Part shown: piece after piece, positions 27,462-57,700 of the stretch | How the letters are laid out: the number at the start of each line of letters is the position of its first letter | Position numbering within the stretch: the stretch's first letter is position 1 | From: Sphyrna mokarran | Taxonomy: Eukaryota | Assembly: GCA_024679065.1 (NCBI GenBank) | Contig: JAGIQG010000017.1 | Span: 23,870,001 to 23,934,000 of the forward strand | Length of the DNA stretch: 64,000 bases | Direction: 5' to 3' | Position numbers and translations under genes: made by a program | Notes under the pieces: model-generated | The model's database searches: none | Seen by the model: the letters and a program-made list of their open reading frames with translations, nothing else | What the model was told of the DNA's origin: nothing

Positions 27462-28499
27462 GCCTACGCTCATTGGAATTTGAAGGATTTCCCTTCGTGA
27501 GAAAAATATAGAACTGGGGACACAGTTTGAAAATAAGGTGAGGATTCTTTTTCTCTCAGAGGATTTTTAGTGTTTTGAATACTCTTCTCCAGTAAATGGT
27601 GGAGGTTGGCTCATTAATATATTCCAATTCGACGTCAAACAGATACTTAATTGCCAAGGGAGTCAAAGGTTATGGCAGAGGCAAGGCAATAACGTGGAGT
27701 TCAGGCCACAATCAGATCAGCTATGATGTTACTGAATGGCGGAGCAAGCTCATGGAGGCCAAATGGCCTGTTCTTACTTACATTCATTATTCTTCTAAAA
27801 CTAACAGCAACATCTGGAGTCTGCATGTAGGCAGTTAAATGCTGAAATCATAAGTTGCTGTCAGCGATCCTAAGTCTCCCCATAGGATACGTCAGGAAAA
27901 CCACTTGACTGCAAACAAGCAGAAATCACCGAACTGGTAAGAACATGCCCCTTACTCTTCTAGTCTTGAAAAGTTACTCCTTGTTGAATGAGACACAACT
28001 AGATTTTGTACGAAGTTCATAATTAATGCTGAATTGCCTTGCCTGGAACTTCTTTAGGAAAGTAGTCTTTACCGCGGTGTGTTTATTTATTACATGCATG
28101 CAGTGTTGCCACTGGTGGGAAAAATTTGCCAAGAGGACAATATACACCCAAGATATATTTGAGGAATATCAAACTTCATTTAAAAAATAAATTTTACAAT
28201 ACGTCCCTATCACTTACTTCATGTTCGTAAATTTTACCAAGAATGAAAATTCAATGCATTTTACTTCCAGTTTTCTATCTGGTAGAATATTATAACCTGG
28301 TTTCCCCCTAATGAAATATCCATGCCTGAATATATTTTCTACCACTCTCCATCATGGGCATCATATAGCATGAGGGTCCTGTGGTACTTACCATGGCCTG
28401 ACCTACTATCCTCTGGTATTTTGTCCTTCTTTCAGTATCTCATCTCATTCCACCCCCTCAATCAAAAAATGTTCTCTATTGCTCGTCCAAGTACGATAA

Positions 28500-30790: not shown

Positions 30791-30859
30791 TTTTTGTTAC
30801 TTAAGTTGCTATTTATTTAAACTTTATTGTTGTTCCATGAAGGACCTACATTTTGGATT

Positions 30860-31360
30860 TGCCTCCGGTATGAATGGATGTGTTACATCTTTACACCTCG
30901 CTCGCCTGCATAAGCGAGGCTTTGACAATACTCAAGAAGCTCGAACTAACCCAGGACAAAGCAGCCCACATGATGGATGTACCTTAAACATCCACCACGT
31001 CCACCCCACCCATTCACAATGGCAGCAAGCTGTGCCGTAAACAAGATGCACTGCAGCAACACTGAGCTTCCTTCAACAGGAGCTTCTAAAGCACATCGGC
31101 CACTTAGACAAGGGTCGCAGACCCAGGGGAACACCACCACGATCAACTTCTCCTCCAAGCTACACCACAATGACTTGGAATTGCCATTTCTTTATTGTAG
31201 CTGTATCAAAATCTTATAATCCCATTCCTAACAGTGAATGTGTCTACATTAGAATTACAGTGGCTCAACAAGACGGCTCACCACCACCTTCAAAGACAAT
31301 TGGGGGAAGGGCAACAAACACTGGCCTTGTCAGTGCCACCCACAGCCCATAAAATAATAC
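30860..31360 (+). mobile_element. LINE 3' fragment (ORF2 end plus 3' UTR)
   Basis: actcaagaagctcga...ccaggacaaagcagcc...caagatgcactgcagcaac...gggaacaccaccac; second, inverted copy at 23320-23575. Confidence 0.7.
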
Positions 31361-32939
31361 AACTTTTTAAAACTCACATTCCTTCTTGAAGTCACTCCTT
31401 AAACCCACTCGAAATGACAAATAAGTTAAATGTTTCCACCACATTCAATGCAGTAAACAATGAGCACAATTTGTCAACCTTGTGGTTCTAATTTAACTGA
31501 TAGCCCAGCTCTCTACATTTTGTGTCAAATGCTGTTTTAGAATGTTGCTGTGAGGCACCTTGTGATGATGCAGTGCCTTAACGACACTCTGCAAATTGTT
31601 GTTGTTGATTGGCTGCCTAATTTGCCAGATGGTATCACTATTTCTGGATGTCCAGAGATCCCCTTCAACTCGGCGCCACTAAATTCAGACAAACGTTCAG
31701 AAAGTGGAAACCCGCACCAAAGGAATCGCTGGATCCTTGTGGCTTGCCTACTCTGAGATCAGCAGCAAATGGTGCCATTTTCCAAGGGACCCTGGGCTAC
31801 CTTTTAAGTTAGAACTCACGGTTGACAAATTGTCTACTGCTCTGGTTGCACCGGAAATATTTAAATACATTCATTTGTTGTTTCTAACATTCTATGCACT
31901 TGCAAGGAACAGATTTTAAACATCCCAACCTTGAAATTTTCAATTCCCCACAGGAATCAACCTCCAGCTAAAGAATGTAAATGCGTGAACTAATGAATCA
32001 ACGTTGTATATATGAGCTTTTCAACTTTCCTGCTGATCTACTTACAATACTGAGCCCAGTCCAGTTCAGCAGCATTGCAGTTCAAAAGCTGAATTGTAGC
32101 GTTGGAGTCAATGCTTATAAGGCCAGTTTGAATTCCTTGTAGCCATCGCTTACCAATGGCAACACGTAACACAATAAAATATAGGTGGCAGAGATTTGCT
32201 GCTTCATCATTGTATTAGCTTCAGGTGATCAAATGAATTAATTTCTAGTTGGTTGTTTTAATTTGCCCAGCAAAAAACTGCCACATCTTTCTCTGAAAGC
32301 TCTCAATATGCAAATAAACCAAATTTACTCTCTTTTTGGGAGGTGCAAAATATAAATGCATATAAACTATCTGAAATATTACTAACTTAACACTATGGTT
32401 ACTAGCTATATATGTGCTGAATCCAGATTTAATTCTGCTTTCAAGCCTATCTCTCCCCAACCCCCCACCAACAACTCGGCGCGTTCCTTCATTTTGAAGA
32501 CTCACTTTCTATGGCACACAGGTTAGTTTTTAATTGTAATTAACTCAAGTTTGTTTGATTTCCATTTGCTTCAGGGTTGTTCCACAAGTACTCAATCAGA
32601 TTTCCCATTTATTTTACATTTAACACTTTAATCTCCACTTAACAACACTTTAATCTTGTATTCCTATAACTAAACGTTGTGCCTATAATGAACTATGGCA
32701 GGGCTCCCCATATGAGTTTCTGCGGAACCCCGCGGTTTCACAGGAGACATCCTGGATTCCACGACAGGTCAGACCAGGTTAATTTCAACAGAAGGTATCA
32801 TTCCAACTTGTCCAGAGCTGGAGACTACTGAGAGGCATGACACAATCAATGCACTGAGAAACCAGCATTTGATTGGACAATCTGGAAATTGCGACAAAAT
32901 GGGCAAAGTCCCAGGCAACGTGGAGAGCAAAAAAATGTG

Positions 32940-35900
32940 TACGTGCGAAGGAACCAGGGAGCAAAAGTGTGTGCAAGTGAGGGTGCCAGAGAGCGCAAGC
33001 AAGGAGCCAGAGAGTGCGAGCACAAGAACACAACCGCAAGAGACAATGAGTGCATGTCGGAGTGTGTGTGTGAGTGAGTGAGAAAGAGCACGCACATGTA
33101 TGTGAACCAGAGATCTGTGTGAAGGACAGTGTGCATGCACTCAGGAGCTAGAGAGAGCGAGAAAGCATGCACGCACATACATGTGTGCAAGGGAGCGAAA
33201 GGGTACGCACGTGAGCACACCAAAGAGAGTGCATACACACGCACAAGAGCCAGAGAGAGACTGAGAGATCGACTGAGCAGGTGCATGTGCGCACAAGCCA
33301 GAGAGATCAAATGAGCAGGCGCATGCACAAACCAGAAAGAGTGACACAGCAGGCACACACGCGAGCCAGACAGCAGCCATAGCTGCATGTACGATCCAAA
33401 CAGCAAGCATGTGCACACGCCAAGTGCAGGCACGCATGAGGTTGCCACTGACAAGAGCACACATGAGCCTGCCCACGAGGTATCACAGACGACAGCGAAA
33501 GAGCGTGCATGAGGGTGCCACAGAGTGAGAGCGAGTACACACAAAGGCGTCACAGACCGAGAGCGTGTGCACAAGGATGCCAAAAAGCGGGGCGGTATCC
33601 CAGCAAGAGAGCAGGAGTTCAAGGATACCAGAGAGCGCCCGCATCTAATCAAGGTTCCAGAAAGTGTGAGTGTGCCAAGGAGCAGGAGCTTATGGAACAG
33701 TGAGCAAGAATACAAGCACCAGAGACAGCAAGTGCAAGACAGAGAGTGAACGCGTGTGTGTGTGTGAGAGAGATAGAGAGCACATATGCATGCACATGTC
33801 CAAGAAAGCAGGCGTGCAAGCGAGACAGTTTGCACGTGGGCGAGCCAAAAAGCAGGTGTTGCTGCGCATGTGAGCCAGACAGCAGGCACTCACGCACTGA
33901 GGGCGCAACAGATGAGAGTAATCCTGCACGATGCCATAGGCGAGTGTGCGCGTGCACGCATAGCCACAGACAAGAGCATGTGCAAACTGCCACAGACAAG
34001 AGCGTGCACACACAAGGTGTGCAGAGACGAGAGGGTGCATGCGAGGTACCACAGATAAGGGCACGTGCATGAGCTGCCATAGATGAGCGTACACATATGC
34101 AGTGCCAGAGATGAAAGCATGCGCACTAGGGTGCCACAGAGCGAGGAAGCTACACAAGATAGAGCATGTGCGAGAGTGCCACAGAGCTAGGGAGCAGTCG
34201 CATGCCACCAAGCAAGGGAGCACACATGTGAGAATGCCACAGAGTGAGCGAGAGTATCACGGAGTGAGCGAGAGAGCACGCTCTCGCACACAAGAGTGCC
34301 ACAGAATGAGCGAGTGAGACAGAGAACGCTGATGTGCGAGGGTGCCACAAATCGAGAGAGAGAGAGAAAAGGTGCAAAGGTGACAGGCACAGAGACAGAG
34401 AGAGAGAGCGAGGATACAACACAATGCGAGAGAGTGCCACAGAGCGACAGTAAGAAAAAGATAGCACCTTTGTGCATGAGGGTGCCACAGAGCGAGCAAG
34501 AAAAGATGCATGTAGGGCCACAGAGTGAACGGGAGAGCACACACTCATGCACGAGGATGCCACAGTACAGTTGGAAGAGCGTGCGAGGGTACCACAGAAC
34601 AAGCAGGAGGGCACGCTCGCATGCGAGGGTGTCATAGAATGAGCGAGAGTTCATGTGCGAGTATGCCACAGAACGAGAGAGAGAGCACTCGCACGCAAGG
34701 GTGGCACTGAATGAGTGATAGCACACACGAATATGCCACAGAACAAGCGAAAGTACACTCGCGTGCAAGTCTGCCACAGAACAAGAGGGAGAGAGAGTTC
34801 ACTCGCGCACAAGGGTGCCACAGAACCAGAAAGTGGACATGGGTGCCATAGAACAAACGAGAGAGAGCACACACTCACACGCGAGGTGCCACAGAATGAG
34901 AGAGCACGCTCTCGCACCACAGAACAAGCAAGAGAGCGCTCACATGCAACAGTGTCACAGAACAAGCGGGAGAGTGCGCTCATGCACAAAGGTGCCACAA
35001 AACAAGAGACAGACGAGAGAGAGGGAGAGGGGGAAGAAAAAGAGAGCGCTCGCATACAAGGATGCCAGAACGGGCAAGAGAGAGCATACTCGCGTGCAAG
35101 AGTGCCAGAGAATCAGCAAGAGACTGCACTCACGTACAAGTGTACCAAGGAACGAGTGACAGACTGCGCGAGATAGAGCAGGCAAAGATGCCACAGGCTG
35201 AAAGATCACGCGCTCGCGTGTGAGGATGCCACAGAATGAGAAATCACGGCTTGCATGCGAGGGTGCCAGAAAAAGAGAACGCATGTGCTTGGATGACACA
35301 GAACAAGCAAAGACCACATGAGGGTGCCACAGAACAAACGAGTGCGCGCTGATGTGCCAGGATGCCACAGAACAAACAAGAGAGAGTGCTCCTACGTGAG
35401 GGGGCCATAAAATGAGCATTTGCGCGCAAAGGTGCTACAGAACAGGCTTGAGTGCGTGCGACGGTGCCACAAAATCAGCGGGAGCGTGCACTTATGCGCG
35501 AAGGTATCACAGAACGAGTGGGAGGGCATGCTTGCTACAGAACGAGCAGGAAAATGCACTCATGCGTGAGGGTGCTACAGAACAAAGGAGAGCACTGGCA
35601 CGCGAGGGTGCCACAAAATGAGACAAAGCACGCGCACCACAGATGGAGCCAGAGCACATGTGGGTGTCACTGAACCAGCAGGAGTGGAGCGCGAGCACGC
35701 ACGCCAGGGGAGCGGGGTGGAAGCGCGCACAATATAGTACCAATGGGGAGTGGGGACGAGCATACGCGCCGGGGGAGGGGGAAGTGCGCGCACCAGAGCG
35801 CCGAGCAATGGGGCAGGTGCATGCGCACCAGGCGCCACCACACCAGGGGGAACAGGCTGCGAGTGCGCATGCACCAGGGGGAACGGGGCGCAACATGGGG

Positions 35901-36225
35901 AAGCACCACTGAACCAATGGAAGCAGGGTGCAAGGCGCGCGCATGCCAGACAGAGAAAAGACGCGCGTGAGCCAGTGGGAGAATGTGCATACGAACAAAA
36001 GCAAAAGCGCATGCGCAAGATAGGGAGAGAAAGCACGCACCAAAGAGAATGTTCACGCGAGAATGTATGGACATGCAAAAGTGAGAAAGACAGACAGCAT
36101 GTATGTGAATGTATGTAAGCAGTGTGAGAGGGAGTATGAGAGACTAAAAGTGTGCGAATGAGATTGTGCAAGCACATGTGAGAGTGGGAAAGAGAATGAG
36201 AAAGAGTAAGAGTGTGTCTGAGCAC
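32940..36225. repeat. Degenerate tandem repeat / low-complexity array, core GAGGGTGCCACAGAACGAG, period roughly 35-45 nt
   Basis: Dozens of TGCCACAGA-like cores separated by (GA)n/(CA)n/(CG)n-like linkers; T-poor plus strand; sub-repeat changes to GCGCACCAG...GGGG at about 35640-35950. Confidence 0.85.
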
Positions 36226-37040: not shown

Positions 37041-38274
37041 TTGAGGATTCTACTTCCTGCACTCTTATCACTATCTACATTTCTGACACGTGCACAGAAA
37101 AGACACTTTGTTCTAGAAAATCAAATACTATGAAGCCTATAATTTGTATCTTCTTAGTTTATGTATTATTATATAGTGGATCAATTGAGTAGATTGTCTG
37201 TTGAGCTTTTATATAAATTCATTCAGATTCACCATGCATTGTGAGCACTAAAATTATTTATTCAATGTTAGAAAATGTTATAGATAATTAAGTTCACAAG
37301 TATAATTCCACCTTTATTACTTCATGTTATTTTAATCCAACATTTTCCCGTCTCTTCCTCTTCCCCATTCCAGACTCTGGTAGTTTACTTGCTCTACATC
37401 CCCTGATGACAGACTACGGTCAGCAAAAAGGGGTAGTCCTCAGGTTTCAAATCACAGTGCCAAGTGGTTTGCATCAATTTGTCCCTCCCTCGACTGGGTA
37501 GAGCGAGGGATCACAAGAAATAATTCACAAGCCAACAGCCCATCAGTGTTTTAAAAAAAACCATCTAGGATGAATGCTATGAAAAAGAGTTATAAAGGCA
37601 CAATACATTAATTTGGCCATAACTGGTGCAATGGTCAAGGCCCACAGGAAAAGCTATGCAATTTGAATGGTTATTTCTGGAAAACATTTCTGTGGGAAAG
37701 CTTTACTTGTTTTTATTTGGAGCTGAGTAAGCAGTTCAGACTCTCAAAGCATGGCATTGATTTTATTTCTTAAACATTTCTTGCCAGGATTCTAAGCATT
37801 TCATTTTTCACAAGTAATTCCGTGCATACCTTATGCATAATTTAAGAAGAATAGGTGCAAGTACCATCAGCTAGTATCCAAATGAAAACTGTGCACGTGT
37901 GAAGCCTGGCCAATAGCACTCTCCCATTTATAAATCACCTATGGAGGCAGCAGGAACAATACCTGGCTTGAATTGATGTTTGAAAAAGTTCACCTTTCCA
38001 TCAGAAAGTCATTCATTGCTGGCAACATGACACATGGAACATTCTGGCATGGAATGTACAACATTTAAATTCAATTACATTGTTGATGTGGATTACTGCA
38101 AATACATAGAAGACAAATAACAATCAATGTCATTTTTTTTCGTGTGCAGACATGGATCTCCCCTAATGCCTTCTGAGTAAAGGAAAATTCAGAACATTTG
38201 CATCTGAATTGTACTCTGATCTCAGAAGTGTGCAGCATTATCAGTGAAGTGTTTCTTGTTCCCCCTTTACCTAC

Positions 38275-38407
38275 CTGTTTTGGGGTCCACATCTGCTGGT
38301 AAGTGTGGTGGAGGGTTACCTGGTGTGAAGTGTTCATTGCTGTATGTTATCAGTGGCGTTAACGGGTGGACGTGATGGGGATGTTGCACAACGGGTACTT
38401 TGTTAGA
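38275..38407 (-). CDS. TCF7L2: TCF7L2 exon 6: [45 protein letters not shown]
   Basis: 133 nt, ttggcag|TCTAAC...ACAG|gtaggt; phase 0 to phase 1. Exons 1-5 were not found and presumably lie beyond the window end. Confidence 0.97.
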
Positions 38408-41400
38408 CTGCCAAAAGAAAGACAGGAAAGGAGTGAGTTAGACAACAGCAACCAATCGATGAACCATAACTTAAGACTAATGGCATTGAGTTGAAGGGAG
38501 CCTCCAACAAGGGACACTTGAACATATTAAGTGTTGTCAAAAATCAGAGGTGTGCATTAGATGATGAATGGTTCCCAGTCAGATTTTATTTTGATATATG
38601 TCATCTCTCTTCTGCTATCAATTTAAAAGAATTGTAACAAAGGAGAGTGATTTGAATCACTCTGCACTAAAGCAACCATATCTGTTACAATTTATCAATC
38701 AGGTTTTTGTTACTTCGCAAACATCCACATTTCATCAAGTCAACACACAAAAGAAAACTCCATTAGAAATGAACCATTTCACACAGTTGTCCAGAAAAAC
38801 TCAATCAAGAGAAATTGTGAAAAATACAATTTTTCTTTGGGTTGTAACAAAAAACAGCTGTCATCACCTTAGAGGCTTTGCTTTTATCTGGTATATTTAG
38901 CGCAGTTTATGAATTTTCAGGAACAGAAATATTATTTAATCCTTTTGTCTATTTTATTGACTCCAACTGAACTTGTCCATGAAACTCCGTAACCATTACA
39001 GCCCAAAAGACCAATCACAAGGGCAAGGAACAATTTTTATAAAAGCCTATTTTGATTAACATCAACATTAAAATAACCACAATAACCAAAGAGTCATTGT
39101 GCAACAATAAGCCTTTACAATAAATGAGATCCAACACACTATTTGCTTATGGGGATGTGGGTTGACAAAGCCAGCATTCAGTTCCTATCCCCAAGTTATC
39201 GTACTGTGAATTTAAATATAGATACAAAAATGGGCCTTTAACCTCAAGTTTGAGGAAATATTTTCACGTGTCTTGTCGATACTTTAAAAAAGACAATTAT
39301 TTATGTCATCTGCTTTATTCAATTGCTATCATATACGTGCACAAAGGAAAGTGAGTACATGATTTAAATTCAATCTTTGTTAAAAGGTAAAAGAAACCAA
39401 CAGTAAACTAGATGGAAGATTCATACTAAAATAAAAACCTGAAAACATCCAATCTCAACTCATTCTGATTTTTTTGTGCCCTATCACCCATTTCTATGTG
39501 GACCCACCAGTGACATCTAGCAATAGTAGATCAGTACTGCATTTTTCTTTAAAAGATTAAAAAAAGTTTATTCAAAAAAGTAACTAAGAGAATGTTTTTG
39601 AACTTACAAAACCATAATGGTATTAAGCCTTTTCTGGTTCAATTTTAGCTATCCTCAATGCAAAATGCGCAGAAGCGACTTTTTGAGGTTACGCGCAGGA
39701 ATGTGCATTTTTGAAAAATCACAATTGATGTGCAGAGTTCACAGGGTTAATACCGTTACTACTTAGACTTTTGGTATCACTGTAAACCAAAAAGCAGTCA
39801 TAAACAACCAGGAGAACCTTTAAAAAAAACAGATCTGCTTCTCATCGAAGCAAATGAGAAGTAAAACCTTGAACTTTAGCACAAAGATTTCATCATGATG
39901 CTACAGGGCATTTTCAGCTGTGGAGTCTGCAGCTGCTTGCACTTTGCGTGAAGGCTCTGTCTACTGGCATCATAAGTCTCCTGCAAGTTTATGCTTCATA
40001 AAGAATTTGCTGTAGAATCCTGAGAGCAAACAGCAGGAGGCTACAGCTAGTTATTTACTGTCTACAGTCTCTCCTGTTTCTAATTGGCGCCTGCTACTGT
40101 TGTAATGAGTTTATATGAGGCATGGACAATATAGAATAGATCATGATTCAGTTTATTCCCCTTCATAAATCATTTGAACGTCCCATCCCATCATCAACAA
40201 CAAACTAATTTCAATTGTAATGAAACATTTATTAACAAAAAAAACAATTAGGGCCCAATACAATCTGACTTCCATCTGTCTTATTTTAAAGATTTCTTTG
40301 ATCCTGCACTGCATTCCCTTCAAAATCTATTTATTTGGTTAATATTTCAACCAGGTTAGTGAAGAAGAGCATTAATTTAACATGCATTAACACACAGGAA
40401 CACAGTAGTTAGAATATTACCTTCTTTGCAAAGAACACAGATCTGACACAACCGCAAGAACATTTCCAAAGAAATATGCACAGAGTCGTTCACTCTCTCA
40501 GCTGTATCTGGACTTGACCTGCTGCAACCTTTGAACTACCCCTTTGCTGATTAACCAGGAACTGATCCAACCCTCTGTTTAATACCTTGCCAAGGTTTAA
40601 GATTAACTTCAACTCTTGCCCCATTTTGAGCATGTAAATAACAAGCCTAGTTACACGTTTGGCGTAAAATAGTTCTCCACATCCTTCTCAATCACTCACA
40701 CTATTCTAAGTGTTTGGATGTTATTTTGCTCCAGCCTTCTATTCTGATAGATTTTAAGCTTTAACTGCCATTCACGGCAATGTGGATTTAAAAATGAAAT
40801 CATACATATTTTCCACCACACCCTTTTTTTGTTAAGCCACAGTGCTCGGATCTGTACACAACAGCAGTTACTCTTTCTCTTTTGGCTGCAAGGGGCTCAG
40901 ATGAGTTGTGCAAGTCTCAATCCAATTTCGTTAGGCACAATTCTAAGGCATCAAACTACCCAAATGTTACACTAAATAATCAGTTTTATTCAGAAAAGCC
41001 CGAAGAATATTTTTAAGTGAGAAGTCATAGCTATTTGCAAGTGGGTAATTTTGCTAATGTTGGATTTTTGAGGCTTTCCAAGAAATGGTCAGTGCTTTGT
41101 CTGGACTGAGATCATTTGATACAAAGGGCTCAAATATCATCCGAAAGAGGAACACAAAATTCACCAAAAATATAAACTAATTACTTTCTGGATGAATAAT
41201 TGAAAACTAACATAATAAAATAGTAAAATCAGCATTTTACCCATGTTCAGATGATTAGTAGAAAGCAAAGAAAAAACTGAGAAACACAGGGTGGGGGGGT
41301 GGTGGAAGTGGGAGAAAGGGAGTAGAAAATAACAATAAAAAGGAACACTTCTCACTCCAGAAAAAAAGTATTTGCTAGGATTCACAAAGATTTAAAAACA

Positions 41401-44400
41401 AACTAAATCAATATTGTTTACTGAGGGACAGCTTAACGCATGAAACATAGCGAACCAGCAATTTACATTTCATCCAAATTTATTTTGGATCACGCGATAC
41501 TGCAGTCCAGTTATCCAGTGTTGCCAAATTGATTGAATTCAGATACCCTATAAAACTCATTAGCAAATCAGGTGCTACAAAAAAATCTGTAGAGCATACC
41601 AAATATCATAATACAAAAGGTAGTAATCATCCATAAGACAATGCAACTCTTCAGATTACACCAGTCATAGAGTTAAGTATGAAAGATAGTGGTAAAAAGG
41701 ACAGAAAAAAATAAAAGTTGCTTGATCATAAATACTACAAAATGGGGGAATAAATTAGACCTAGCCCAAGTTCTATATATTCATTTTAAAAATCACATGT
41801 CAGTGTTAGTGTATTTCAAGGAAGTACAGTTATCAGATAAGTATCATCTATTAAGACAAGACAGTAATGGAGGAAGACTTTATTCAGTAACTTCTCATTT
41901 GCCAATCTGGCGGCTGTTCATTTTGTTTTAATGTACTTTATGGATTTAATTCATAAAAATGTAAGAAGAATTTCCAAGTAGTAGATCGGATTTCCTTTTT
42001 TTAAAGAAAAACTTTCACACCTGATTTTCAAGCCAAGTGAAAATGTTGAAGAATAAGTCAATGGGGCATCTCTTCAATGTCAATGATTAGCATGGATTTT
42101 AAACCAAATCTGACTTCCAATAACATGCAAAGGAGAAAAATACTCTTTAGGCAAAGCCTAAAATATGCACAGTCCAAATGATCAAGATTCAGCAATTAGT
42201 AACTGCAGCGATGTTTATTCAGTTCTCAGGCACAGATTTCTAACCTGATGATCGGTATCTACATTTAAGTACTAGTGAGCATGGAACGCTCACACCCTAA
42301 ATCACACATCAGCAACTGAATTCAGTTAAAAACTACTCAGACCACTTTTGTTTTGAACTAAAAGCAACTAGTGTAAATAGGTAATTGAGGGGAGCGGGGG
42401 ACAAAAAGTGTAATTATCGTGTACAAATACAAGTTGTTCTTGTGAGAATACTCTCCAATTCCTAAAGTTTTCCATTGTTCTTTGAGAGACACCACCCAAG
42501 AAAATGATGAATGCATTTGATTGTAACATACGCACTTAAGATTTCTAAAAAAAAATCAAAATACATCAGCTTCGTACATAGCTCATTTGTTCATCATCGT
42601 TATGGAGTTCTTCCTAATATGACATACTTGTAAACTGGAGAACAGAGAGAAATAATCATATTCTAGTTTATTTCATTAAGGATGAGTAATTATTTCCGGA
42701 ATAGGTGAGAGAGTGGGGGGTGGGTATTATTTTAAAACAAAATGCCCCTTAGAACATATTTAGCAGTTTTTAACTTATGTGATTAAGTGATTTTTCATTA
42801 ACTTCACCTGTTAAAAATATACATTGCAAAAGAGATGTATGATAAAAGCTGGAGATATAAAACTACAATCACTTATAGACAGAACCATACTGCTGCGTTA
42901 TCAATAAACATGACTTCTACTACAGATTAGGGATCACCTTCTGTGACGCTGTCCGTTCTTCCTGTGAAAACCACAAACCTGTGGCCTTGTATGCATGACA
43001 CACCTGCATGGTGGAAGTATAAAATGCATGGCTTTGTACCAGATTTTATAGCCTTGTTTTCCAATAACCACTCTCCCCCCCCCCCCAAAAAAAACACCTT
43101 CCCAATTGGCGAACTTAAGCATTTTTATCCCTCTGGTAGAATTTCCATCCTTAATTATAGTAGCCATCAGTGGAAAACTGTATCAAATAATCTTGTCACT
43201 TTGCTCTTTTTAAAAATGTGTTATTTGGGATTACATGAAGGAAAGAGGATGTTAGAATATGAAGCTGCTGCCAAGGGAGGAAATGAAGGAAATGCCTGTA
43301 GGAAGTGGGACTGTCCATCAAACAGTGGCAGTGGGCAGGCTGTGAAGGGAAACCCCTCCTCTTGGATCATTGCACAACACTTTACTCAGGAAACTCTAGA
43401 ATCAACCTCTGACCTTTCAAGTGTACTTAAGCATCACATTCCAAATAAGCTGCAGTGGGAGATATTTCACTAGGGTGGACCCTACACAGTATTCACAATC
43501 AGGAATGTGGCAGTCAAAGATTGATTGAACACTCATACTCCCTCCCCGCATTTTTTTTAAAATGGTAACCCGAGAGAAATGAAAGCTTGCCGTTCACCTC
43601 TGATGTCATTAATCAAGAGGCAGGCAAAACAAACTGGAACGGCTGTGACCGTCTTTCTAGCCAGTCCCTTCTACTGAATGCACCCCTATTGCGTTCATTG
43701 CAGTTCTGTGCAGCTGAAGAAAGATTGGGTCTGAAAAGTGCATTTGTGCTCAAAGTACAATAAAACAAAAGCAGCTACACAAGGGGGCTTGTCAGGCTGC
43801 CTTCCCGAGGCTAATTCTGGCAAGTCCAATGCTTTGCTTAAATTACTAGCCCTGAGCTTGGCTGTACCCAGACATGGCTTACTGTTCCAAAGTTACTAAT
43901 CTTAATGGTCTGCAACACTACATTCTCTCATTCTGAAAGTCTGCTCTCTATTAACTCCCTAATTGCTGGTCAATTATGCCCAACTGCATTTTTTCTTAAA
44001 AAAAAGTTTTTTTAAAAAATAAAAGAGCTATTGACAGTTAAATTTTGCACAATGATAACTTTCCATTAACAGAAGTTGATGGATTTCCTAAAGGACAAAA
44101 TTTAAATACATACTTTCATTCAACTTTTCCTTCACATTCTCACCCACCGAAAAGAAACCCTTCACACCTGAGTAAGCATTTTCTTTCAAATCTACTTTTC
44201 CTATTCTTATTTATACAGTGGTCTGCGCCCTTTTCACAGTATTATACAGCTCATTTTTGGCCAAGGTCTTGCCCTTTTGTTAACTGGCCATTGTTCCCAG
44301 GGACAAGGCCTTCATTGACTAGTAAAACTCTCCTGTTCAGAAAGAGGCTCCTCTTCTCCTCCAACAAACGATGACAGGACCACTGACACGACAGCATACA

Positions 44401-47400
44401 AGACAAAACTGCATGACCAGGCAGTACAAAACCTCTTCAGAATGCTCTCACATATTTCCACGCTGTTCCAGCTGTCAAGAAAGAAAGACCACTTTCTGGC
44501 CACCCAATTGTTAAAATTGTATGAAGCAAACTAAACTAAAATCCAGCTTTGGGGCCTACTATCCTCTTAAATCATTTGCCAGAGGACTACTGTTATTAAA
44601 TACATTTCTTATGTTAAACTATTAAGTACTCAGCTATATTAGTCCTGAGCACATTTTGGGGAGGAGAAAGATTTTAATGCATTTCAGTGAAACAGTCACC
44701 TCTCTGTTAGGGCAGCATTCTCAAGAACTTTCCTCCTAATGACTACCTTAGTGGCGCTCGGATTTCAAAAGACAAATTCACAAGTATGTCAGACTATGTA
44801 TTCAAGAGCAAACCAAACTCACCTCTTCAACATACTACTTTCCCTATATGTAAATAACTGAAAGTAGGCACTTGTAAAAATTTCCGCAATGAAAAAACAT
44901 TGAAACTTCAATTTGGAAGATTTTCTCAATCGCCATTTTCTGAACCTCATAGCAAAACTAACGTGGAGCAGAAAAAACAAACTGGTATCTTTTAGAAGGG
45001 GGAGGTGGTAGTGTGTACAGGGGCTTGATGAGCCCACACTGAAATGTGTAGCCAGGGCTCACATGTCTTCTAAAGGGGTAATTAAAGCTGCAAGATAAAC
45101 ATTAAGAACAGGAGACCACAAATGAAGAAGCAGAAAAGGTGGATTAACATGATATCACTGCATGTTATAGTACATTAACTACCGCTCAAGAATATTCGAG
45201 TTAACTCAAATGGAGGGTGCATTCCATTGCAACTGCAGTGGCTTACTGAAAGGAGCCCTTTATTCCAACCGCTTTAGTAATTCCACCCGCTTTAGACATA
45301 CACTGGCCATCTATAAGTCTTGATGTCATAGGAAAAAAAAGCATTTGAGATTGACATTTGGGAGGTTCTCGACAGTAACCCATAAGTGTAACTTATATAA
45401 TATCAGAAGTTTCGGCAATTACAGCATGTTAAAATGAATAGTTAATCCATATGATTCTTTTTCAGAACATACTTGATATCTGCCCTTACTAACCTAATAA
45501 ATATTTGTCAGTGACAAAACTTTTGTAGTTATCGGCCCAAGTTAGCTATTGAATAATCCAATCTTTTGAGTTTAATATTAATTTTTTTTAGTCAGCTTTA
45601 GATAAATCTTATGGTTCAGTTCATACATTTTGAGTGAATATGGATACTGATCTCAATACTCATGTAATTTTATCAATTGTGCATTCATTTAAATGATTGT
45701 TTCTTATTTCTGATAAGATTGAGCCTGAAGGCAGAAAGGTTGAGCATTACAAAGCAGTTACCCTTTCTTACAATGCATGTATGCTTATTGAGAGGAACCT
45801 TGAGCATCACTCCTTTCAGTGAAAAAAAATCAATTTGCACTTACAGCAGTTCAGTCTAACGTATAAAAGAGTTTCACAGAGTCCACAGTACAATGACTGA
45901 ACTCTGTGTAGGATATGTGTGCCAGACTGGACAAGTAGTACAAGGAAAGTTAACTGACAGGCAATGATCGATTGGTGTTTCAGGTTGACAAATTCCAGCA
46001 GTACAAGACATCTGCCAAGCATGTGACCTGATAAATAGCAGCACTAAGGCTCAAATCCAAGTATTCATTTCAGTATAAAACAGAAGTCACTCGTGTGCGA
46101 GCAAGAAAAACTGAGGGGGAAAAAAAAGACAATGGGACAATTTTATAAATCTACACTAAAGGTTTACCTTTTTTTGTAATGATTATATTCACATGGCCTT
46201 CAAAACATATGAAAAATGACGAGAGTACCTTTGTGGCTATCATTCTGCCTAGAGCTCCTCTCAGTAACATTAATGTAGTTTCAATCAGTGAAATTACCAT
46301 ATTAAGTGATTAAGCAACAAAATATAGTTGAGGCCTCTTAATGGGAACACCCACATGGAGAGCAAAATATTTCCTTTATCCAATTACTACTAAACAAATA
46401 TAAAAATCTTGAGTGGCAATCAAGTGCATATTGGAGCTGTCAAAAACTGAAGTCATTAATTGATCTTTAACAGCAGGTTTGCAATACAGGGAAGAGGACA
46501 CGGAACTATTTCAGTGTTTGTTAAAATTGCATTCATCCGACACAATTAAAAAGCAGCCTGATCAATTTCCATCGCAAATGGTCCTAAGCACTTCCTTAAA
46601 CAAATTTATCTACTACTTCTGTTTATCTCTCTTGATTCAATCATGTTGCAGCTTTCCAACATCAGACCAAAATGTTCACCACAAACCATCAGTTTTGTCA
46701 TTAGAGTACATTAAGGTTTAAAATCAGTCATCAAGTGAATGCACCCTCTCAATTAATAAATAATTTCACTGTATCAGGTGTAGTCTACCAGGCTTAAAAA
46801 AAACAAAAATAAAACCCAAACAACATGTGGGTATTTTGAAATGCAAGGGCAAGGGGGGGTGGGAGGAGTAGGGGGGCACGGGTGGGACAAATCAAAATAT
46901 AGCAAGAGAGAGACCAACAAAAGGTAGATTCAATTTTGTAAATGATAGGTACTATACTTACATGTGTTTAAAAAATTTAACTCATGTCCACAATGACGCA
47001 ATTTCATATCACTTCAAATAATTGTGCTTTTTTATATACTGCTAAAATATAATATGCAACTTGAAACTTCTGGACATTATTACTTCAACATCAACAAGTT
47101 CTATAAAGAGTTATTGCACATCATGCTTAATGCTTTAAGCAATTCACACAGGAATGCTAACGGTTTGCTGTTAAAAAAAATGTCCCGCAGGACACTCGAC
47201 ACGTTTGCGTATTTGTTATTCAAATACCAGCAAATACCAAGTATGAAATGACAGTGAAGTACAACAGTGATATAAAAATGTTTAGTTGCTTAATTATAAT
47301 GGAGGAGGGGAAATCACAGGGAATGGTTATCAATAAAATAATAAAATATCAGCTTTAAAATGCTCGTTTTATTTGTTCTGGTGGTATGTTCAGAACATCT

Positions 47401-48663
47401 GGCACTAATTTTGTTCATAGCAGGGAAAAGACAGCCCCACAGCAGTGGAATACATATACAAATGAAAACCTCAACCTATATACATATTTAAGAAAAACAT
47501 CAGGATTTGTTTTTAAATCCAATCAGAATGCATAATATTAGACCAAATCATCATTTGGGTACATTCTAAAATATCATTGAATGGAAGGCTTTTGTTACAT
47601 CACCCCACAGTGTACAAAAACATGCCAAAACCTCAAAAATGAGGTTTTCCTGCAAACTCAAAAAGACTGTTCAGAAATGCTCCACATTTTCCTTTTTAAA
47701 CATTTAAGAAAATCTTTCGCTCCCTTGCAAAAATCTAAATGAAAATGAGCACATTCGAGAACACCAACTTGCTGTCTACAAGATTCTACAATTACCTGTT
47801 ATATCTGAAGTGTGCCACGCTTCTAATAATTTATTTAAGCCTTTTTTTTTCAAAACAGCAGTTCAGTCTAACCTTCAATATAGCAAATCATTGTGTGCAA
47901 TCTGGTCAGCAATAACGGATAATGTATTTAAGGTTTTAAAGAGAAAGAATATAGGGTAGGGAATAAATTACTCTATAGTGTTAGCAATACTTCTTTTGAA
48001 TACGTAAAGCATTTTGGTTGAAGATGATAAATTAAAACACTTCGCTTTTTAGGATTCAACGGAAGATAATGTAACAGTTAAGAAAAAAATACAACCTTTT
48101 CCCTACCTACCCCCTTGAAAATGGCATGCATAGATTTTTATTTTAAAAGTCTCTGTTATATATTTAGTTTTGTACATCATCTGCACACTGTTGCTTTCAA
48201 AATAGCTTCAACAATTGAGCCACGGAAGCAACTCTACCTCCAGACATTTGAGTATATTTCACTTAAATTTTGAAAGTTAAATTTAACTAAATGAAAGCAT
48301 GACAGCGTAATGTCAGAATTAATCAGGTACAATGCTCAAATGTAAATTCTGCACTGAAATCTGAGTGCAGAATATCCCATAGTAAGCAGCTATCGAGAAA
48401 AATAAATCAGTATTGAGCTGGTTAAATCAACTTTTTTTGAAGAAATCCCAATGTCATGCTGCCTGCAATTGGATTTTCCTTTTTTGTTTCTTCTTCATAG
48501 ACAGATTCTTCTGAAAGCGGCAACACAAAGGTCACAGTTTCAAGTATTGGATAGAAGGTCGCTTGCCTTTACTGACCACCTCTTAACCACAGTAACTGGC
48601 CTTATCTGAAGCCCATCGAGTGAAATAAAACACAAACGTGCACTGTAGCATATGGTAACTTAC

Positions 48664-48786
48664 CCAGCTGTTTAGATTGAGATGCCAGCAACCAAACTGA
48701 TGGAGAAAGGAGAACCCAGAGGCTAGCGTTCCTCCTTTATTGTTCCCTTCTTCCATTCCCAGCAAAATCGCATCCCTCGGGTACAT
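48664..48786 (-). CDS. Candidate alternative first coding exon (41 codons, MYPRDAILLG...NLNSW) in phase with exon 6
   Basis: ATG at 48786, 123 nt open, ends TGG|gtaagt in phase 0. Confidence 0.5.
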
Positions 48787-50844
48787 GCTGCTTTATCTTC
48801 TGTTGTCTCTTAACCTCTACAACTTTTCCCCCCTTTCTTTCTTGCCTTGGTGCCGACTGCGCTTTGTGTCTTCGTGGTTTTCCTAGCGTCTTTTTTTCCT
48901 CTTAAAAAAGTACTAAAAAAAATGTCTCAAAAGATCAAAAGCTTTCCATTTCTGTGGCCTGGTGTTTTTAGAACCAACATTCTCATTCAAGTTTGCCGTT
49001 AGTAACATCTTAGTCCTGGTGTAGTCCTCTGTCTGCCGTGTAGCAGGTACCAAAATTTAGGACACACTCAAACGATAACATAGATCACTGCACCAAAACG
49101 CTCACTTAGAAATGAGTAAGCCCGCACACAGGGGTATAACCCCATGCGTACTATTTATTTTCTTTTCAAAGCCCACAACTCTCCTAGGATTACCAAAATG
49201 ACAATGCTGCAACTCTATATGGAAAGGTATCAATAAGTGCAGCAGTGAGGAGACAAGCATTGGTTAAGGGAGCATGATCAACAAACTGTAGCATGCAGTC
49301 ACATCTGTGGGAATGTCAAACCCCTCACGCTGAACTTCTGGGGGTAGAGTTGCAAGAATGCTCTATTTTCTTTGACACAGTGACACTATAATATATATCT
49401 CACGCACACAGATTCATATACATACAAATATACAAAAATATATGTTTAAAAAAAAGACACCTGTGAGGTCTTGCCATCAGTCCCAGCAGGTTTTTTTTAA
49501 TTACAACAGTAAACAGGGTGGAGAAAAGGCAAAGCACTAGACCTCACTGCAGCTTCTACTGGCTGACCTCAGCTACACACAATATACAAGAGCAGCTTTT
49601 GTATTACAAGGATTCTCTTTCCGAGTTGCTCTTTGCATACTGCTTCCCGTCGCTAATTGCATCCCCAAACAAAACCCTCTCCATCTCCAAATTGGGGGCA
49701 GCTCATATGTTCCAGAAAATGCTTTTCACAATGGAAGCAAAAAGTAATGAAATGTTCCCATTAACCACGCTCACCCCCCCCCCCACCCCCACACCCCCTC
49801 CTACCCCTCCACCATGAATATAGGTGGCATAGAGCCCATGATACCCTCCCACCAACCAAAAAAAAACACAACTTTTTAAAAACAAACTTTACAGGCATTC
49901 AGTTTTCTTAAAAATAAAAAACTCATTCCGTAGGCTCTGCAGAAGATGCCACACACTTTTCCTTCCCGTCTATCTGCCTGATTAGAAAAGTGACAAGACA
50001 CGAGAACAGGGGAAACAAAACACCGTGCGGTTTTTTCCCTCTTTATTTCGTGCTCTGCACTAATCTGGCCTTCGCGTGCAAAGTGTCGGCCAGAAATCTT
50101 TAAGGCCTTAATACCAAAACAAAACCTTTGAATTCCCTTTATATGGTGCAATACAGGCGCTAACAAAGGCAATGAGGCTACAGTTTGACATATAAAAAGC
50201 CCAACAACGAGGCAGCTAATTACATTCCCTCCCTCTATTCATGGTGGCCACCACACTCCAGCAGCTTCTTTTGTCACACGTGCAATTTCTTAAGTAAACT
50301 GGGAGTTTGGTTGCTGATGATGGACAGTTACTAATCATTTAGCACAATGAACGCTAAGTGCGACAGAAAGGATGGGCAACTTCAACACAGATTTCTTTGG
50401 GATTGGAGGATGTGAGAAGAAAAAAAAAGGAGCGGGGTGGGGGCGGTGGAAGCTCGCCACACAGACGACGAAAGGTGAACACTTAAAATACCAGATCCTT
50501 TCAGTTCACATATTTACCTTGCATCTACTGGGGGAGGGGGAAGGAGGCCGGGGGGAGTTGGTGGAGGGAAAGGCAAAAACATGCTGTGGGAAAGAGAGAC
50601 TGCAAATTAAACTTGCCAACTCCGATTAACTTCAGACATTACATCAAGAACAGAATTCTAAATACTTCCATTACCCAATAGTTTTTTCGTTTCACCCCCC
50701 CAACCCACCAGAAAAGTTTTCCATGAAATCTCAATTTAAAACAAAACATGCACCAAAGCACAATTAACCTCGATGTCATATTAGTCAAATCGGAAAATAA
50801 TGCTTTCGAGCGTTCAGTCCTTCTTAAAAATTTTGCTAACTTAC

Positions 50845-50847
50845 CAT
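50845..50847 (-). other. ATG immediately followed by consensus donor (candidate 3' end of an internal first exon)
   Basis: ggtgtaaATG|gtaagtt. Confidence 0.5.
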
Positions 50848-51713
50848 TTACACCTGCTCAAATTACGATGCTTCACACTGCCTGAATTCAAACATGCTGC
50901 CGTTCCTGTGCTACAGCATAAAATCAGCCGGCTCTTTGCGATGTGGGCAGATCCACTGGGGGGCAGCACCCTACCTGAGCCACTTACAGCCGAGATGCTG
51001 CTGAGATAGGGACGCGAAGCGATTACATCCAACTCCAGCTCTCCAGGAAAAGATGCTCAAGTTCAGGTCTATTCAGTGAATTACCTTGCTTCATGGGAAA
51101 GAGATAATGAGATGGCAGCACTCATTTGATCAGAACCAGCCCCAAAAATCACACCAACAGTTTTCAGAGAGGAACAAAAGAACAACAGTTGCTTGCTTTC
51201 TTGGCGACATTAAAACCAGTTGCAGCCTCCCATAATGTTAAATTGGCTGGTATTTTTGAAGCCAGACCAGAGAGAGAGAGAGAGAGACACATAAAAAAAG
51301 TATTTCTTCCCCCCCACCACTGCACCCCCCCCCCTACCCCCAAGGTATATAAAGGCTAAACCTACCGTTTATTTTGCCCACATAGCCAGCTCAGTTTAAA
51401 CATGACCTCCGGGAAATGCTGAACTATGAAATGATTTTGATATATCAATTCAAAGTTTCTTTTTTAAACAAAAAAAAAGGCAACTTAGCAAGTTGTGTAT
51501 CTGAGCTCTAATATTTGCCGCAGCCAAGTGTGGCAAGCGGTTCCATAAAGCTTCCCTGCCCACTTTTGAAGCCTGCGTTACTAACACACGCAGAATGACA
51601 CCACTGAGCGCCTTTAAAGGATACTAGGGAAAAAAAATGACTATTGATCTTCAAATGGTGATAATTGAAAAGATCAAAAGATTAAACAAAATCAAAAAAA
51701 TGCGCTGACTTAC

Positions 51714-51716
51714 CAT
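51714..51716 (-). other. ATG immediately followed by consensus donor (candidate 3' end of an internal first exon)
   Basis: gcataacATG|gtaagtc; A at -3. Confidence 0.55.
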
Positions 51717-54700
51717 GTTATGCTTTTTTTTGTTACAACTTGGTTGAAATTTCAGTCAAACAAGCTTCATCGGAGATGTCAAATTTTTGGCGGACTGTGA
51801 TCGTATTACTTCCGCAGCCTTGCCTCACAATACTTCAGAACTTTTTACCTAGCTTTGGTTTACTTTGAAAGCTGCAGCTCAGCAAACCAGCACAAATTAT
51901 CTTGCCACCTTCTACAGCTCTGATGCTTTGGCCGCTAACTTTGGAAGGCCCTTTACTACTGCATCAAAATTAGCATTGTCAAAGCGGTTAATGAATATTA
52001 ATACTGTATTTGTCATTGGAGCTGGCCTGATGCTGAACTCCGAGCCATCCATCAGGGACAAGATTAAGAACACAATTATTTCTGACTGACAGGGTCCAAA
52101 TCTGCTAGATTTTTTTTGCAAATCTAAAAAAAAATAAGAGACAAAAAAAAACATCTTATGGGTTCCCCCTGGGGACGAACAGTCAGATTAATACACTTTT
52201 AATGAAGTGAAGGCTATTAAGTATGAAGAAAAAGCAAACAAGATGTACAAGTCGAACTTACAAATGCGGCACGGTGGCTGATAAAAATTAAAAGAATGGC
52301 ATATCTTTTTCGACAGCTGTCTGAAATTTTTCTTCAGAGCTTTCTGGAATGAAGAAAGAATCTTTCTTCCCAATTCTGCATCATTTGAATAAGGAATGCA
52401 CTGTTATAACCCACATGGGATAATTGTGTCTATCTTGTGTCTTAACAACATCAACTCAAAGACAGGATCCTAAATAATTCCTACACAAATATTATAATCA
52501 ACACTTCCTTAAAAGCAATTGACAATCATGATTATTCTCTCAATTGCATCTGCATGCTGCTAAAAATACTCTTAAAAAATGTATGCCAAATATACTTTGT
52601 GCAGACCTTACGATACCATAATATATGTTGCAAAAAATTATCCCGCTGTTATAAAAGACCAAACTTAAAACACATTTAGAAACAGCGTCCTAACCTTTTA
52701 ATGCTGACAGTTTCTGTGGGAATTTAAGGAGAGTCATGAACGTCGGCAGCAAAAGGCAACTTAGTTCAACCATGTTTCTATAGTTGCCTTCGCAGCTAAA
52801 TATCACTAAAATTCCCTGCGTGTAAAGTCACGCTACATGTCTTGATCTCACATAAAGAACTATAAACCCCCAGCAAACATCCTTTGCTGCTACTCATATT
52901 TACTTTCTCCCCGCCTCTCTCAAGCTTTTGTTCCCTAGATTTTCATTAAATTTGCACAAGATCTATTTTATATTAGTTGCAGACACCCGCCATGGTGCTC
53001 ATAGTGGATTCATAACGGGAGACGGTGGAAAGGTTCAGATGCAGATTTAAAGAAAGACGACTATTTGGGCTAAAGTCATTTGAAAGGCAAACCCAAAAAA
53101 AAGTGTTTTGAATTTCCTCGGCCACCCCTACAAAGTATAACCCCAATGCACCAGAAACGGGAAGTGTAGCATTGGTCCTTTCCTTGCTCACAGGACTCGG
53201 TTTTCTTACTCTTCGCTTTTAAAACCTATTAAAGCTATTTTATTTAAACGGCGATTTGGGAAGGAAGGAGGAAGAGGTGGAAGATAAGGAAAAAAAGAGA
53301 AAACTGACAGATGCGACAGTTAATGCCATCTGACCAGTGAAATGAGGGGGTCTGGGTCAAGCGACTATGGCTGCCAAGCTAATCTACTGCTCTCACTGAC
53401 CACCCCACTGGCTGCTCCTAATACCATTAGCAATCCTTAGATGAACATTCTAAATTGGAGTTTTGTCCTCTGATGAGCCAATCTGACCCCGCTGAAACAA
53501 CCCTGGAGCTCCATGTGCAGATGGCAAATCTCCTGAAAACATTTCTTTCAGCTTTAAGATTTTTTTTTCCCTTGCCCGCTTTCTTTTGTCTTGCTCAATC
53601 CTTTTCGCCCCTCTCCAATTTGAGACAAAACATTGCAAAAGCACAAAAATATGCCTGTTTATCTAACCCGGTTACTGGTGCCATTTCATTTTAGAAGTGC
53701 ACCCTGAAACATTTTCGAAGAATCCATTGTTGATGCGTTTTCATTTAGCTTCGTCTTTGTGCAAATTACTTTTACTTGCTCCTGAAAAAGAAGAGGGGAG
53801 CGAGGAAAAGAGAAATTGGAGGGTGTTTATGAAAACTGTCAGGTTTGAAGCTTTCTAACCAAGTGAAGTTAGAGGCTGCTGACTCTGAAGCGGTGGGTGC
53901 AGAAAGCATTTGCCTGACAGAACATTTACCGCAGACAGCTCCCGCTACCTCTACTTACACAGCACGATCACATCAGCCCGAGTATCAAATTAACTCACTG
54001 ACTTTGAAAGTTATTGATCTGCTATTAAGACACTAGTGAACTTGATGAAATCAGTGCTGTAGGTGCAGTGAAGACTTCAAAGTCTCGCACAGACACATAA
54101 AACAAGTTTCTTTGATCCTTTTTACGATCCGCAGAGGGTTTAAAGCCCAATTCTCGATGTGCTGCTCTTCACACTCGTCAGGTCTGATTTTTTTTACCAA
54201 TAGACAGCTTGATAATGTTAATAGTGCATATTTTAGCAAACAACTAATTCTAAACCAATATCTTAATCTGTTCAGACTAACAGCATAATTTATTAAAACA
54301 TGTCAAACAAAAACCAATTTTACCTTTATTGCTGTCTGCACTGCAGGAGTCAGGAATTTTCAATGCGCAAGTATATACGGGTTTTCGCCGTATCTACACC
54401 AGTATTTTATCATTAAGGAGATGATTAATTGGCACAGACTTACGAAATCCTTATTTGAAGTAATTTAATATTTACAACAAAATGAAACAAAAGTCACAAT
54501 TAAGTTAAATTCGTAACTTATTTTGTGGATTTTTTTAGATAGACAACCACAGGATCTATAGCCATTATTCAGTTACTTTTTTTTCATAAAAAAAACACTG
54601 TAGCTGTTATAGAAACAGCCACACAAAACACTAACATAACTAGCAGTGTTGTATTGGAAAAGCAAAGACATTAAGAAGTTCAAGTAGAGAGTAAAAACGG

Positions 54701-57700
54701 ATTCAAGTAGGAAACTGCTTCATTAGATTCGGAAATGATTTTACAACAACAAAAAAAATTGAAATACAAACCTTAGTATGATAAAATGGCCCACAGATTA
54801 GAGCTCAGATCACTCACTGGGAACTACAGTTATTTCTTCTACACCAAACACACATGCCAACTTGAAAAATTAACCTTATTGGTCAGAAAGATACTTAAAT
54901 TGCTATTCAAAATTTTTGCACACATTTGTAAAAGACAAATAAATCAATTACTTTTTTCATACAAAAATCTGCTACGCTAATTTTGTTCTTAATTTTAACT
55001 ATTAAGAGAATACTAGCTGTGGATGCTAATATTTGAGTTTAGAAGGATTGCATTTATTGTAAAATGTATTCAGTCAAAGTGACAATTTATGTCAACAATA
55101 AAATCCATTCTGTTAATTATGAGAAATAAAAAGTACTGTAAACAAAATTTTAAAAAAAATCAACTGCAAGAGCCTTCACCATGATTTTACATTAAAATTG
55201 TGAAAAGGTTCATGCAAATTTGTTACAAAAAAGATTCTCTCATGTAGACAGTTCTCACCAAAACACTGTTCGCTAATGAAATCATCTACAATACAATTCA
55301 GGAACAAATTAAGTTTTTGTACTAGCTACTGGGGTCCCACTTACAATTCTAATGAAGTCAACACTCCAATAAGATGTGTTCAGAAAGTTTCCTGGGCCAC
55401 CAGCACAGAGATCCTTTTCACCAATTAGTGCAAAGAAAAAGAAGGGGAGAGAAAAAAAAAACCAGAGTGCCCGTACTCAAAGAGCTAGGCCTTACGGCAA
55501 ATCTGTCATGTCGACTGAATTGATCAACGGGACTGGTATTTCTAATGGCATCTTGTCAGGAAAAGTCAGCCATAGGGAGCCACCTGTGTTACTCTTTGCA
55601 GACAGCTAAAGAGCTAGATACCGATCTCAGGCAGCATCTTTTACTAACAATTTGGGAGAGCAGTCTGATTTCCATTGCCGTACAACTTGTCATTCTGCAA
55701 TCATCAGAAATGGTTATATGCTGAACACAGCCATTCTGTAGGCAGCCAATTTACTAGAAACTCAACGCTACAAAGCAATGAGAATGATCAATTTCTAATT
55801 TAAAAAAACAATTAATTGTGCATATCATTACGCTCATGGATTCCCTTCTCTAGTAGCAAGCATGACCTAGACTTTGCAATATAACAAGAGTGCAGATGAC
55901 GTGGAGTCCTGTTTGGCCAAGGAACGCTTTTCCAGGTTCAGCAATACAGCCTTTAAAGTCTCAGAAACCAGTTCTTAAGACAATAAGATGTTCATGAACC
56001 ATTTTGAATGCGCTGCCATAAACATTAGAGAATACGGGCAGCCAGATTTACACCAAATACATTATTAAGTTCCACAAAATGAATCACAAAAATGAGGAAC
56101 TTGCATACAAACGTCAGAAGGCGAGCACAATTTTTTTGGGGTGCCTAGTTTGTCAAGCGAGCCAAAAACACTTGGGTTGCAAATCACGTATCGCAATCTT
56201 TCTTGCTCGCATCAGTCAATGAAATTCTCAGGTTCTTTCTCTTTGCAGCCTGCGGCGGTGGCTTTGCCCAGGGACATATACCAATAGAAAAATTTTCATC
56301 GTGTTAGCATTTCAAATGGCAGAAAGTGAAAGGAAGCCCTAACTGATCATAGCCTGCGGAATTAATTGGCTATTCTCTGAATAATGTCGCTCACCGCATA
56401 TCCTTGGGAGACCAGCACTAGCCGAGGCCACGTTTTTGTGCAACGGCTTCAAAAAAAAGCGCTTAGGGGGTATTGGGGGGGGGGGTCTTAAAGCTTTAGC
56501 GCATTTCCCCAAAGACCAAGCAAATAGAACCAGCAAGCTTGCCCAACTAATCCATTTGGTAATTAAATGCACAATTCCATTAAACATTCTTCCATCGTTT
56601 CAAAATTACACGAACAATAGATTCCGATTGCTCTGAATCTATATGCTGGATACTCGATATCAATGCAATGAACGCGGCTGGAAGACCTCTATCTTAAGTG
56701 AGGAAAATTTAAAATATTCTCGGCTTTTTGCCAGTTTTAAAACAAAGAACTCAAGTAGACGCCATGTTGCTACTTGTTTCATTCTGTGGGATTAAAGTTT
56801 GGGCCTTTTTTTCATTCATCAAAGGATATGCAATGACCCTGCTTGATATGAGTATACCACTCTTTAAGACACATCTTAATCTAACCTTTTTAGGACTCTT
56901 GGCTTTCAAACTCAAAACAGCATTAAAAATAGGCATTGTTGGTCAGCCCTGGGAGACTGAGCTTCTGGCTTTCGCTGGCCAGGGCAGTAGCCCTCTGGAT
57001 ACACAGCTGCTTACGCGGCCAAGTAAGCTCTGCACAGCAAAAGGAAAGCAAAGGGGGAGAAAGTGAAAAGACGAGATTAAAAAAAAATCTTCGCAAATGT
57101 TCCATCTTTCGTTATCGACTGCAGCCTAGCGTGAGGTGCCAATTTTCAGCTCTAAAGAGAGGACACAAATTCGCAGCGGTCCCATTATGCGGTCTCTTCG
57201 CTCATTGTATATTCCGTCAACGAAGTCAATCTTATTAACTTCCGCTCTGGTTCACACATGACATTTTCTTCAATTTTCTTGCCAACATCAAAAACATCAA
57301 TTAGCAGCTAGAAAATAGGAAGGAACAAATGACAGAGCCCGATAACGTCAACTATTTGAAACAGAGGGTAAATCTATTCCGCAATACTGAATGCATTCAT
57401 TACCAATTCATTTTCAAAGGAGGCTTCCAAATAGCAAGGAAAATTAAATTTATCATCTAGAAATGTCCAGAAATTGTTTGTTTCTTAATCCTATATCTAC
57501 AATGCCTCTTCCAAATGCAAGATGAAGAAATGTTATCTAGTTTTAGGTTTGTACAGTGCAACTTGGAAAGAAATCGATGGGTTCAGCACCATCACAGGAC
57601 ACACTGAATCTCACACAAACTGGAAATAAATATAACCGTACTAACTTACTTCCAATATTTCTACATATTTCGCCCCTACTTTCCTAAATTTAAATACAAG

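Follow-up and report, generated by a model that had tools for sequence, protein, structure and literature searches.

Vacik et al. reportedly described, in 2011, internal promoters in intron 5 of mouse Tcf7l2 associated with the products dnTCF7L2 and S-TCF7L2. The brain promoters Ex1b-e have been placed in the same intron (PMC6147171, PMC3468386, PMC3429047), and mouse nanopore reads revealed at least 10 alternative first exons that account for about half of the brain transcripts; eight of the mouse alternative first exons lie within ~6 kb, and a 6-kb deletion abolishes the short protein (Qi et al., 2023, PMC10208975). The short form makes up ~70% of the embryonic thalamic mRNA (PMC3825142), truncated TCF7L2 is also made in Xenopus (PMC4963812), and the β-catenin binding site has been assigned to the first ~41 residues (PMC3429047). 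According to a 2025 mouse preprint, the short and long TCF7L2 proteins are redundant in the embryonic thalamus, with no antagonism between them (bioRxiv 10.64898/2025.12.27.696670). A 2022 study described at least two ΔN isoforms of TCF7L2 that arise from novel exons of this same intron, placed the gain of ΔN in the gnathostome TCF7L2 subfamily, and listed four cartilaginous fish among its species (PMC9303524). The available text of that study gives no shark-specific first-exon coordinates, and the readable text of three of its text supplements contained no match to the short-isoform starts. The accessible parts of PMC6908431, PMC8651982, PMC6772062, and PMC11589584 held nothing on fish first exons. 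TCF7 and LEF1 resemble TCF7L2 in that their ΔN forms lose the β-catenin-binding domain through an internal promoter; however, these forms start at exon III methionines and not at novel exons upstream of exon 6 (PMC9303524).

The DNA analyzed here, referred to as the window, is a stretch of 64,000 nt from Sphyrna mokarran whose minus strand carries the 3' part of TCF7L2. Over the last exon of the gene, 141 of 154 residues were shared with a catshark protein and 88 of 144 with a chicken protein, which places the host among the cartilaginous fish, in agreement with the initial annotation. Exon 6, preceded by CAG and opening with the codons for SNKVPVV, begins in phase 0, as the initial annotation had proposed, and the TCF7L2 exons past exon 6 lie at about 17.6, 16.9, 9.8, 9.3, 8.5, 7.2, and 1.9 kb. 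Exons 1-3 and 5 are located outside the window, exon 1 being ~122 kb upstream of site 1. When the window was combined with the neighboring genome, intron 5 was found to measure 67,818 nt, with the end of exon 5 lying 42 kb beyond the window. A second C-clamp-like exon and a further matching segment (6913-6842 and 6215-6093, minus strand) follow the CRARF exon and fit the alternative 3' exons already described for TCF7L2.

Within intron 5, ATGGTAAGT was found on the minus strand at two positions spaced 869 nt, named site 1 and site 2 in Table 1, where the initial annotation had read two ATG/GTAAGT donors about 870 nt apart (the slash marks the predicted end of the exon). At site 1, the last exon base is 51714, the ATG has an A at -3, and an upstream ORF of four codons opens at 51770. 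At site 2, the last exon base is 50845, the ATG has a T at -3 and a TAA immediately 5' of it, and two more in-frame ATGs lie upstream, at 50919 and 50895, with reading frames that end at that TAA. Because of the preceding stop codon, the T at -3, and the upstream ATGs, site 2 is a weaker candidate than site 1; we rate site 1 as highly probable and site 2 as moderately likely. A third candidate donor is that of an exon of 41 open codons located 2.2 kb downstream of site 2, which the initial annotation had not noticed. Upstream of exon 6, site 1 lies at a distance of 13.3 kb, site 2 at 12.4 kb, and the 41-codon exon at 10.3 kb. All three donors, like the exon 6 acceptor, are in phase 0, so that their starts are in frame with exon 6. 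The stretch 50400-51800 was single-copy in the genome in a search that skipped common words, and 51690-50850 contained no TATA-like match. By eye, more donor-like words are present on the minus strand of 50520-51910, for example near 51083, 50987, and 50518; these may represent extra first-exon ends, considering that the mouse has at least 10.

Table 1. Coordinates of the candidate first exons, the conserved DNA around them, and the shared downstream exons of TCF7L2 (window numbering).
Feature	Position	Strand	Description
Conserved element	51909..52052	minus	candidate regulatory element (promoter or enhancer), ~200 nt 5' of site 1
Site 1, ATG/GTAAGT	51708..51716	minus	candidate Met-only first-exon end; donor use inferred from sequence
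Site 2, ATG/GTAAGT	50839..50847	minus	candidate Met-only first-exon end; donor use inferred from sequence
Highly conserved block	50038..50492	.	between site 2 and the 41-codon exon
41-codon first exon	48664..48786	minus	41 open codons, ATG to phase-0 G/GTAAGT donor
Exon 6	38407-38275	minus	133 nt, phase 0 to phase 1; shared acceptor exon
HMG-box exons	8442..9391	minus	kept in any short isoform

A protein search with exon 6 gave 3,826 matches, and among the best 120 of these, several proteins opened with a 41-residue segment that is not found in full-length TCF7L2. Using the N-termini of annotated TCF7L2 isoforms as queries in tblastn, the segment was mapped to the 41-codon exon, whose start ATG has an A at -3. 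The same exon is present in the skate models XP_055502842.1 (Leucoraja erinacea) and XP_078269608.1 (Rhinoraja longicauda), in chicken XP_015144042.1, and in marmot XP_048663303.1. Both skate sequences, which come from computational models (predicted RefSeq), are of equal length to the shark exon, end at a phase-0 donor, and are identical to it at 37 of the 41 residues; reptiles and birds shared 29-31 residues with the shark exon, mammals 25-28, and carp 24 (59-90% overall). Across 21 distinct 41-residue sequences, the length is fixed and 13 positions are invariant, with the intact frame being partly built in because the compared sequences are annotated proteins. In six comparisons, which are not independent, the substitutions were milder than those expected from random nucleotide change (P 0.016-0.14), and simulated random change introduced a stop into the exon in 42-64% of cases. 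This substitution pattern lends modest support to coding constraint on the 41-codon exon. The segment was joined directly to exon 6 in 24 of the 424 proteins retrieved, including the two skate models. No Pfam family was detected in the 41 residues, and no second or paralogous copy of the exon was found in the shark genome. When metagenomes were scanned with the 41-residue alignment, one of 214 candidate stretches passed; it belonged to a contig of 62% GC that did not match the window at the DNA level, and it was rejected as a chance hit. In the open literature, a search not aimed at the peptide found no studies on the 41-residue start or on shark first exons.

The 9-mer ATGGTAAGT occurs four times in the window, always on the gene strand, against 0.67 copies expected, and none of 100 shuffles reached four; the looser word ATGGTRAG was not enriched (6 against 4.27 expected in the window, 23 of 100 shuffles). 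The three copies listed in the initial annotation were all present, and a fourth, at 8047, had been overlooked. Neither of the copies outside intron 5 was retained as a first exon. The one at 8047 is the donor of a real coding exon in phase 1, and its ATG is not a Met codon. The other, which had been described as lacking context near 28386, was located at 28394. It lies within intron 6, its frame would not fit that of exon 7 (phase 1), and it stands at one end of a stretch (~28390-28650) that has 16 other genomic matches of 67-95% and is a decayed repeat. Intron 5 as a whole contains the 9-mer twice in sense orientation, at sites 1 and 2, and never in antisense, the Markov expectation being 0.27-0.41; since the probability of two or more copies at an expectation of 0.35 is 0.049, the count alone is marginal. 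The position of the two sites beside an independently found first exon is a stronger signal than their number. Both are located no more than 3,051 nt upstream of the donor of the 41-codon exon, for which the chance probability is ~0.008 with a width chosen afterwards. Three of the four G/GTAAGT words in intron 5 fall within this 3.05-kb cluster (P = 0.023), the 41-codon exon being the only one of the three donors tied to annotated models. The fourth word, at 63042 on the minus strand, has no ATG and is distant from the cluster.

Sites 1 and 2 are flanked by conserved DNA. The conserved element upstream of site 1 is read as protein in three bird gene models, which matched it at 87.5%. A coding role in the bird frame was rejected, as the only models were unnamed-isoform bird models and the shark genome has a stop; because this stop interrupts the bird reading frame, the element is likely to be non-coding. 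Six TAAT/ATTA homeodomain cores were counted in 52085-51955, an interval picked after inspection, compared to a mean of 1.79, and 2.1% of 192 intron windows reached six. At the mouse Tcf7l2 internal promoter, Vacik (2011) is said to have described a conserved element bound by a homeodomain protein (Vax2). In the highly conserved block at 50038-50492, contigs from other organisms differed by 9 letters plus 16 gap letters in 439, by 3 in 143, and by 1 in 83, most of the other listed intronic contig pieces differing by ~6-11%. No Rfam match at gathering score was obtained over 47500-51800. The CpG observed/expected ratio within the cluster (0.2-0.62) is mildly raised over the intron median of 0.26 and is not diagnostic, because higher bins occur at 54-57 kb; the highest values in intron 5 (0.64-0.78) were observed at 53900-57400, just upstream of the cluster, possibly marking additional regulatory elements.

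Annotated proteins from other vertebrates include both kinds of short start. A Met placed directly on exon 6 was observed in 7 of the 424 proteins retrieved, namely from chicken, quail, marmot, degu, mouse, spiny mouse, and song sparrow. The Met-only proteins of chicken, quail, and mouse are represented by two or more RefSeq accessions apiece, which fits, without proving, the presence of more than one Met-only first exon. Among the 185 cartilaginous-fish proteins retrieved, a sample biased to long forms, two opened with the 41-residue segment, and the Met-only start was not seen; the sample consisted of hand-sorted identifiers with at most 15 members per cluster, and the ranking favored long forms. 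In the short models, PF08347 was matched only from position 138 or 148 of 222, meaning that positions 1-137 or more are lost, and the HMG box (PF00505) was whole in P0100 and P0139, two of the short models. The initial annotation is supported as to the gene, the intron, the phase, and the predicted product. Four contig sets from other organisms, guessed to derive from RNA and with no tissue recorded, were aligned on 37800-51840. Exon 6 was joined to exon 5 sequence in two of the four runs (X1 and X2), and none of the joints listed for the four sets started from 51714, 50845, or 48664, a result that is neutral either way. As rare forms are dropped, tissue is unrecorded, and low-depth pieces occur throughout the intron, the contig sets are uninformative on the use of the three first exons.

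From the sequence, we consider that sites 1 and 2 are probably the 3' ends of alternative first exons belonging to an internal-promoter cluster in TCF7L2 intron 5. This explanation is supported because the 41-codon exon was found independently of the ATG motif, yet both sites adjoin it. Transcription would begin upstream of each donor from internal promoters that are probably controlled by the flanking conserved elements and active in neural tissue. Each of the three first exons would then be spliced in frame to exon 6, giving a short TCF7L2 that starts with a single Met in the case of sites 1 and 2 and with 41 residues in the case of the 41-codon exon, and that is predicted to lack the β-catenin-binding N-terminus. 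Such proteins would occupy TCF sites via their HMG box but would not recruit β-catenin. They would repress Wnt targets where β-catenin is active and elsewhere contribute to the total TCF7L2 dose, in line with reports on the mouse.

Conserved poison exons are common in regulators, and sites 1 and 2 could instead be the donors of internal cassette exons to which exon 5 is spliced; the stops in these exons would lead to nonsense-mediated decay, and the ATG would be incidental. Near 52124, on the upstream side of site 1, a pyrimidine run ends in AG, and both ATGs are preceded by in-frame stops, which would agree with such exons. However, the ATG would have to form the last three bases of both exons by coincidence, amniote models exist in which Met stands directly on exon 6, and mouse long reads yield first exons without exons 1-5 (PMC10208975), so that we regard cassette exons as very improbable. 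It is less far-fetched, although still unlikely, that the cluster is real but that cartilaginous fish use only the 41-codon exon, perhaps together with site 1. One or both of the ATG/GTAAGT words, most likely site 2, would then be chance matches in conserved regulatory DNA. The weak start context of site 2 and the unsupported copy of the 9-mer at 28394 are compatible with chance matches, as is the finding of the 41-residue start, and not the Met-only start, among the cartilaginous-fish proteins. Against this, both intron 5 copies adjoin the independently found exon, Met-only models exist in birds and rodents, and the retrieval was biased to long proteins.

A further possibility concerns function and is compatible with the anatomy of the first-exon cluster: the exons would be real, but their products would not be dominant-negative in vivo, the promoters serving mainly to raise the β-catenin-independent TCF7L2 dose in neurons. 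We give this possibility slightly less than an even chance. In isoform-specific mouse knockouts, 297 genes changed upon total loss compared to 79 upon long-only and 37 upon short-only loss, and the changes were all in the same direction (bioRxiv 10.64898/2025.12.27.696670). The short form nevertheless repressed a TOPFlash reporter (PMC10208975), and, according to reviews, it blocked β-catenin-TCF transcription in mouse and Xenopus (PMC4963812). The effect of the short form is likely to be context-dependent. The initial annotation had called the product a dominant-negative TCF7L2, a label that was overstated in view of the redundancy seen in the thalamus (bioRxiv 10.64898/2025.12.27.696670).

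Returning to the first-exon cluster, its comparison with described systems suggests that an internal first-exon system is likely present in cartilaginous fish, the best support being the 41-codon exon joined to exon 6 in the skate models. The mouse Ex1b-e and exon 5' series comprises at least 10 first exons, compared to three candidate donors in the shark, where they are known from sequence. The earlier claim of such a system in cartilaginous fish agrees with the skate models, but its novelty was overstated, given that gnathostome-wide short isoforms from this intron had been proposed (PMC9303524). The shark cluster likely extends a system known from mouse and frog and does not constitute a new one. 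Because the general claim is already in print, the gain consists of the coordinates and the neglected 41-residue N-terminus. A more speculative reading, which we put forward tentatively, is that the cluster acts as a two-way switch that sharks and mammals both retain from their last common ancestor, with the 41-codon exon defining a third functional class of TCF7L2 instead of one more dominant-negative form. The Met-only exons would then give a bare short TCF7L2, and the 41-residue end, in place of the β-catenin-binding end, might be a conserved module for partner binding, stability, or localization, a suggestion that we hold to be equally doubtful. The fixed length, the 13 invariant residues, the lack of a Pfam match, and the mild substitutions of the exon are the observations behind this reading. 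TCF7L2 is tied to diabetes risk and to neurodevelopmental disorder, and the exact coordinates offer primer and guide targets for asking whether the short form antagonizes Wnt or backs up the long form. If the junctions are confirmed, brain-specific promoters for short isoforms and their exon layout would already have existed in early jawed vertebrates.

Two compositional features were observed elsewhere in the window. A 3-kb stretch of intron 6 (33000-36000) has a GC content of 54-58% and a strong AT skew of about 0.49 and is likely a simple or tandem repeat, and at 28000-32000 the GC skew is strongly negative.
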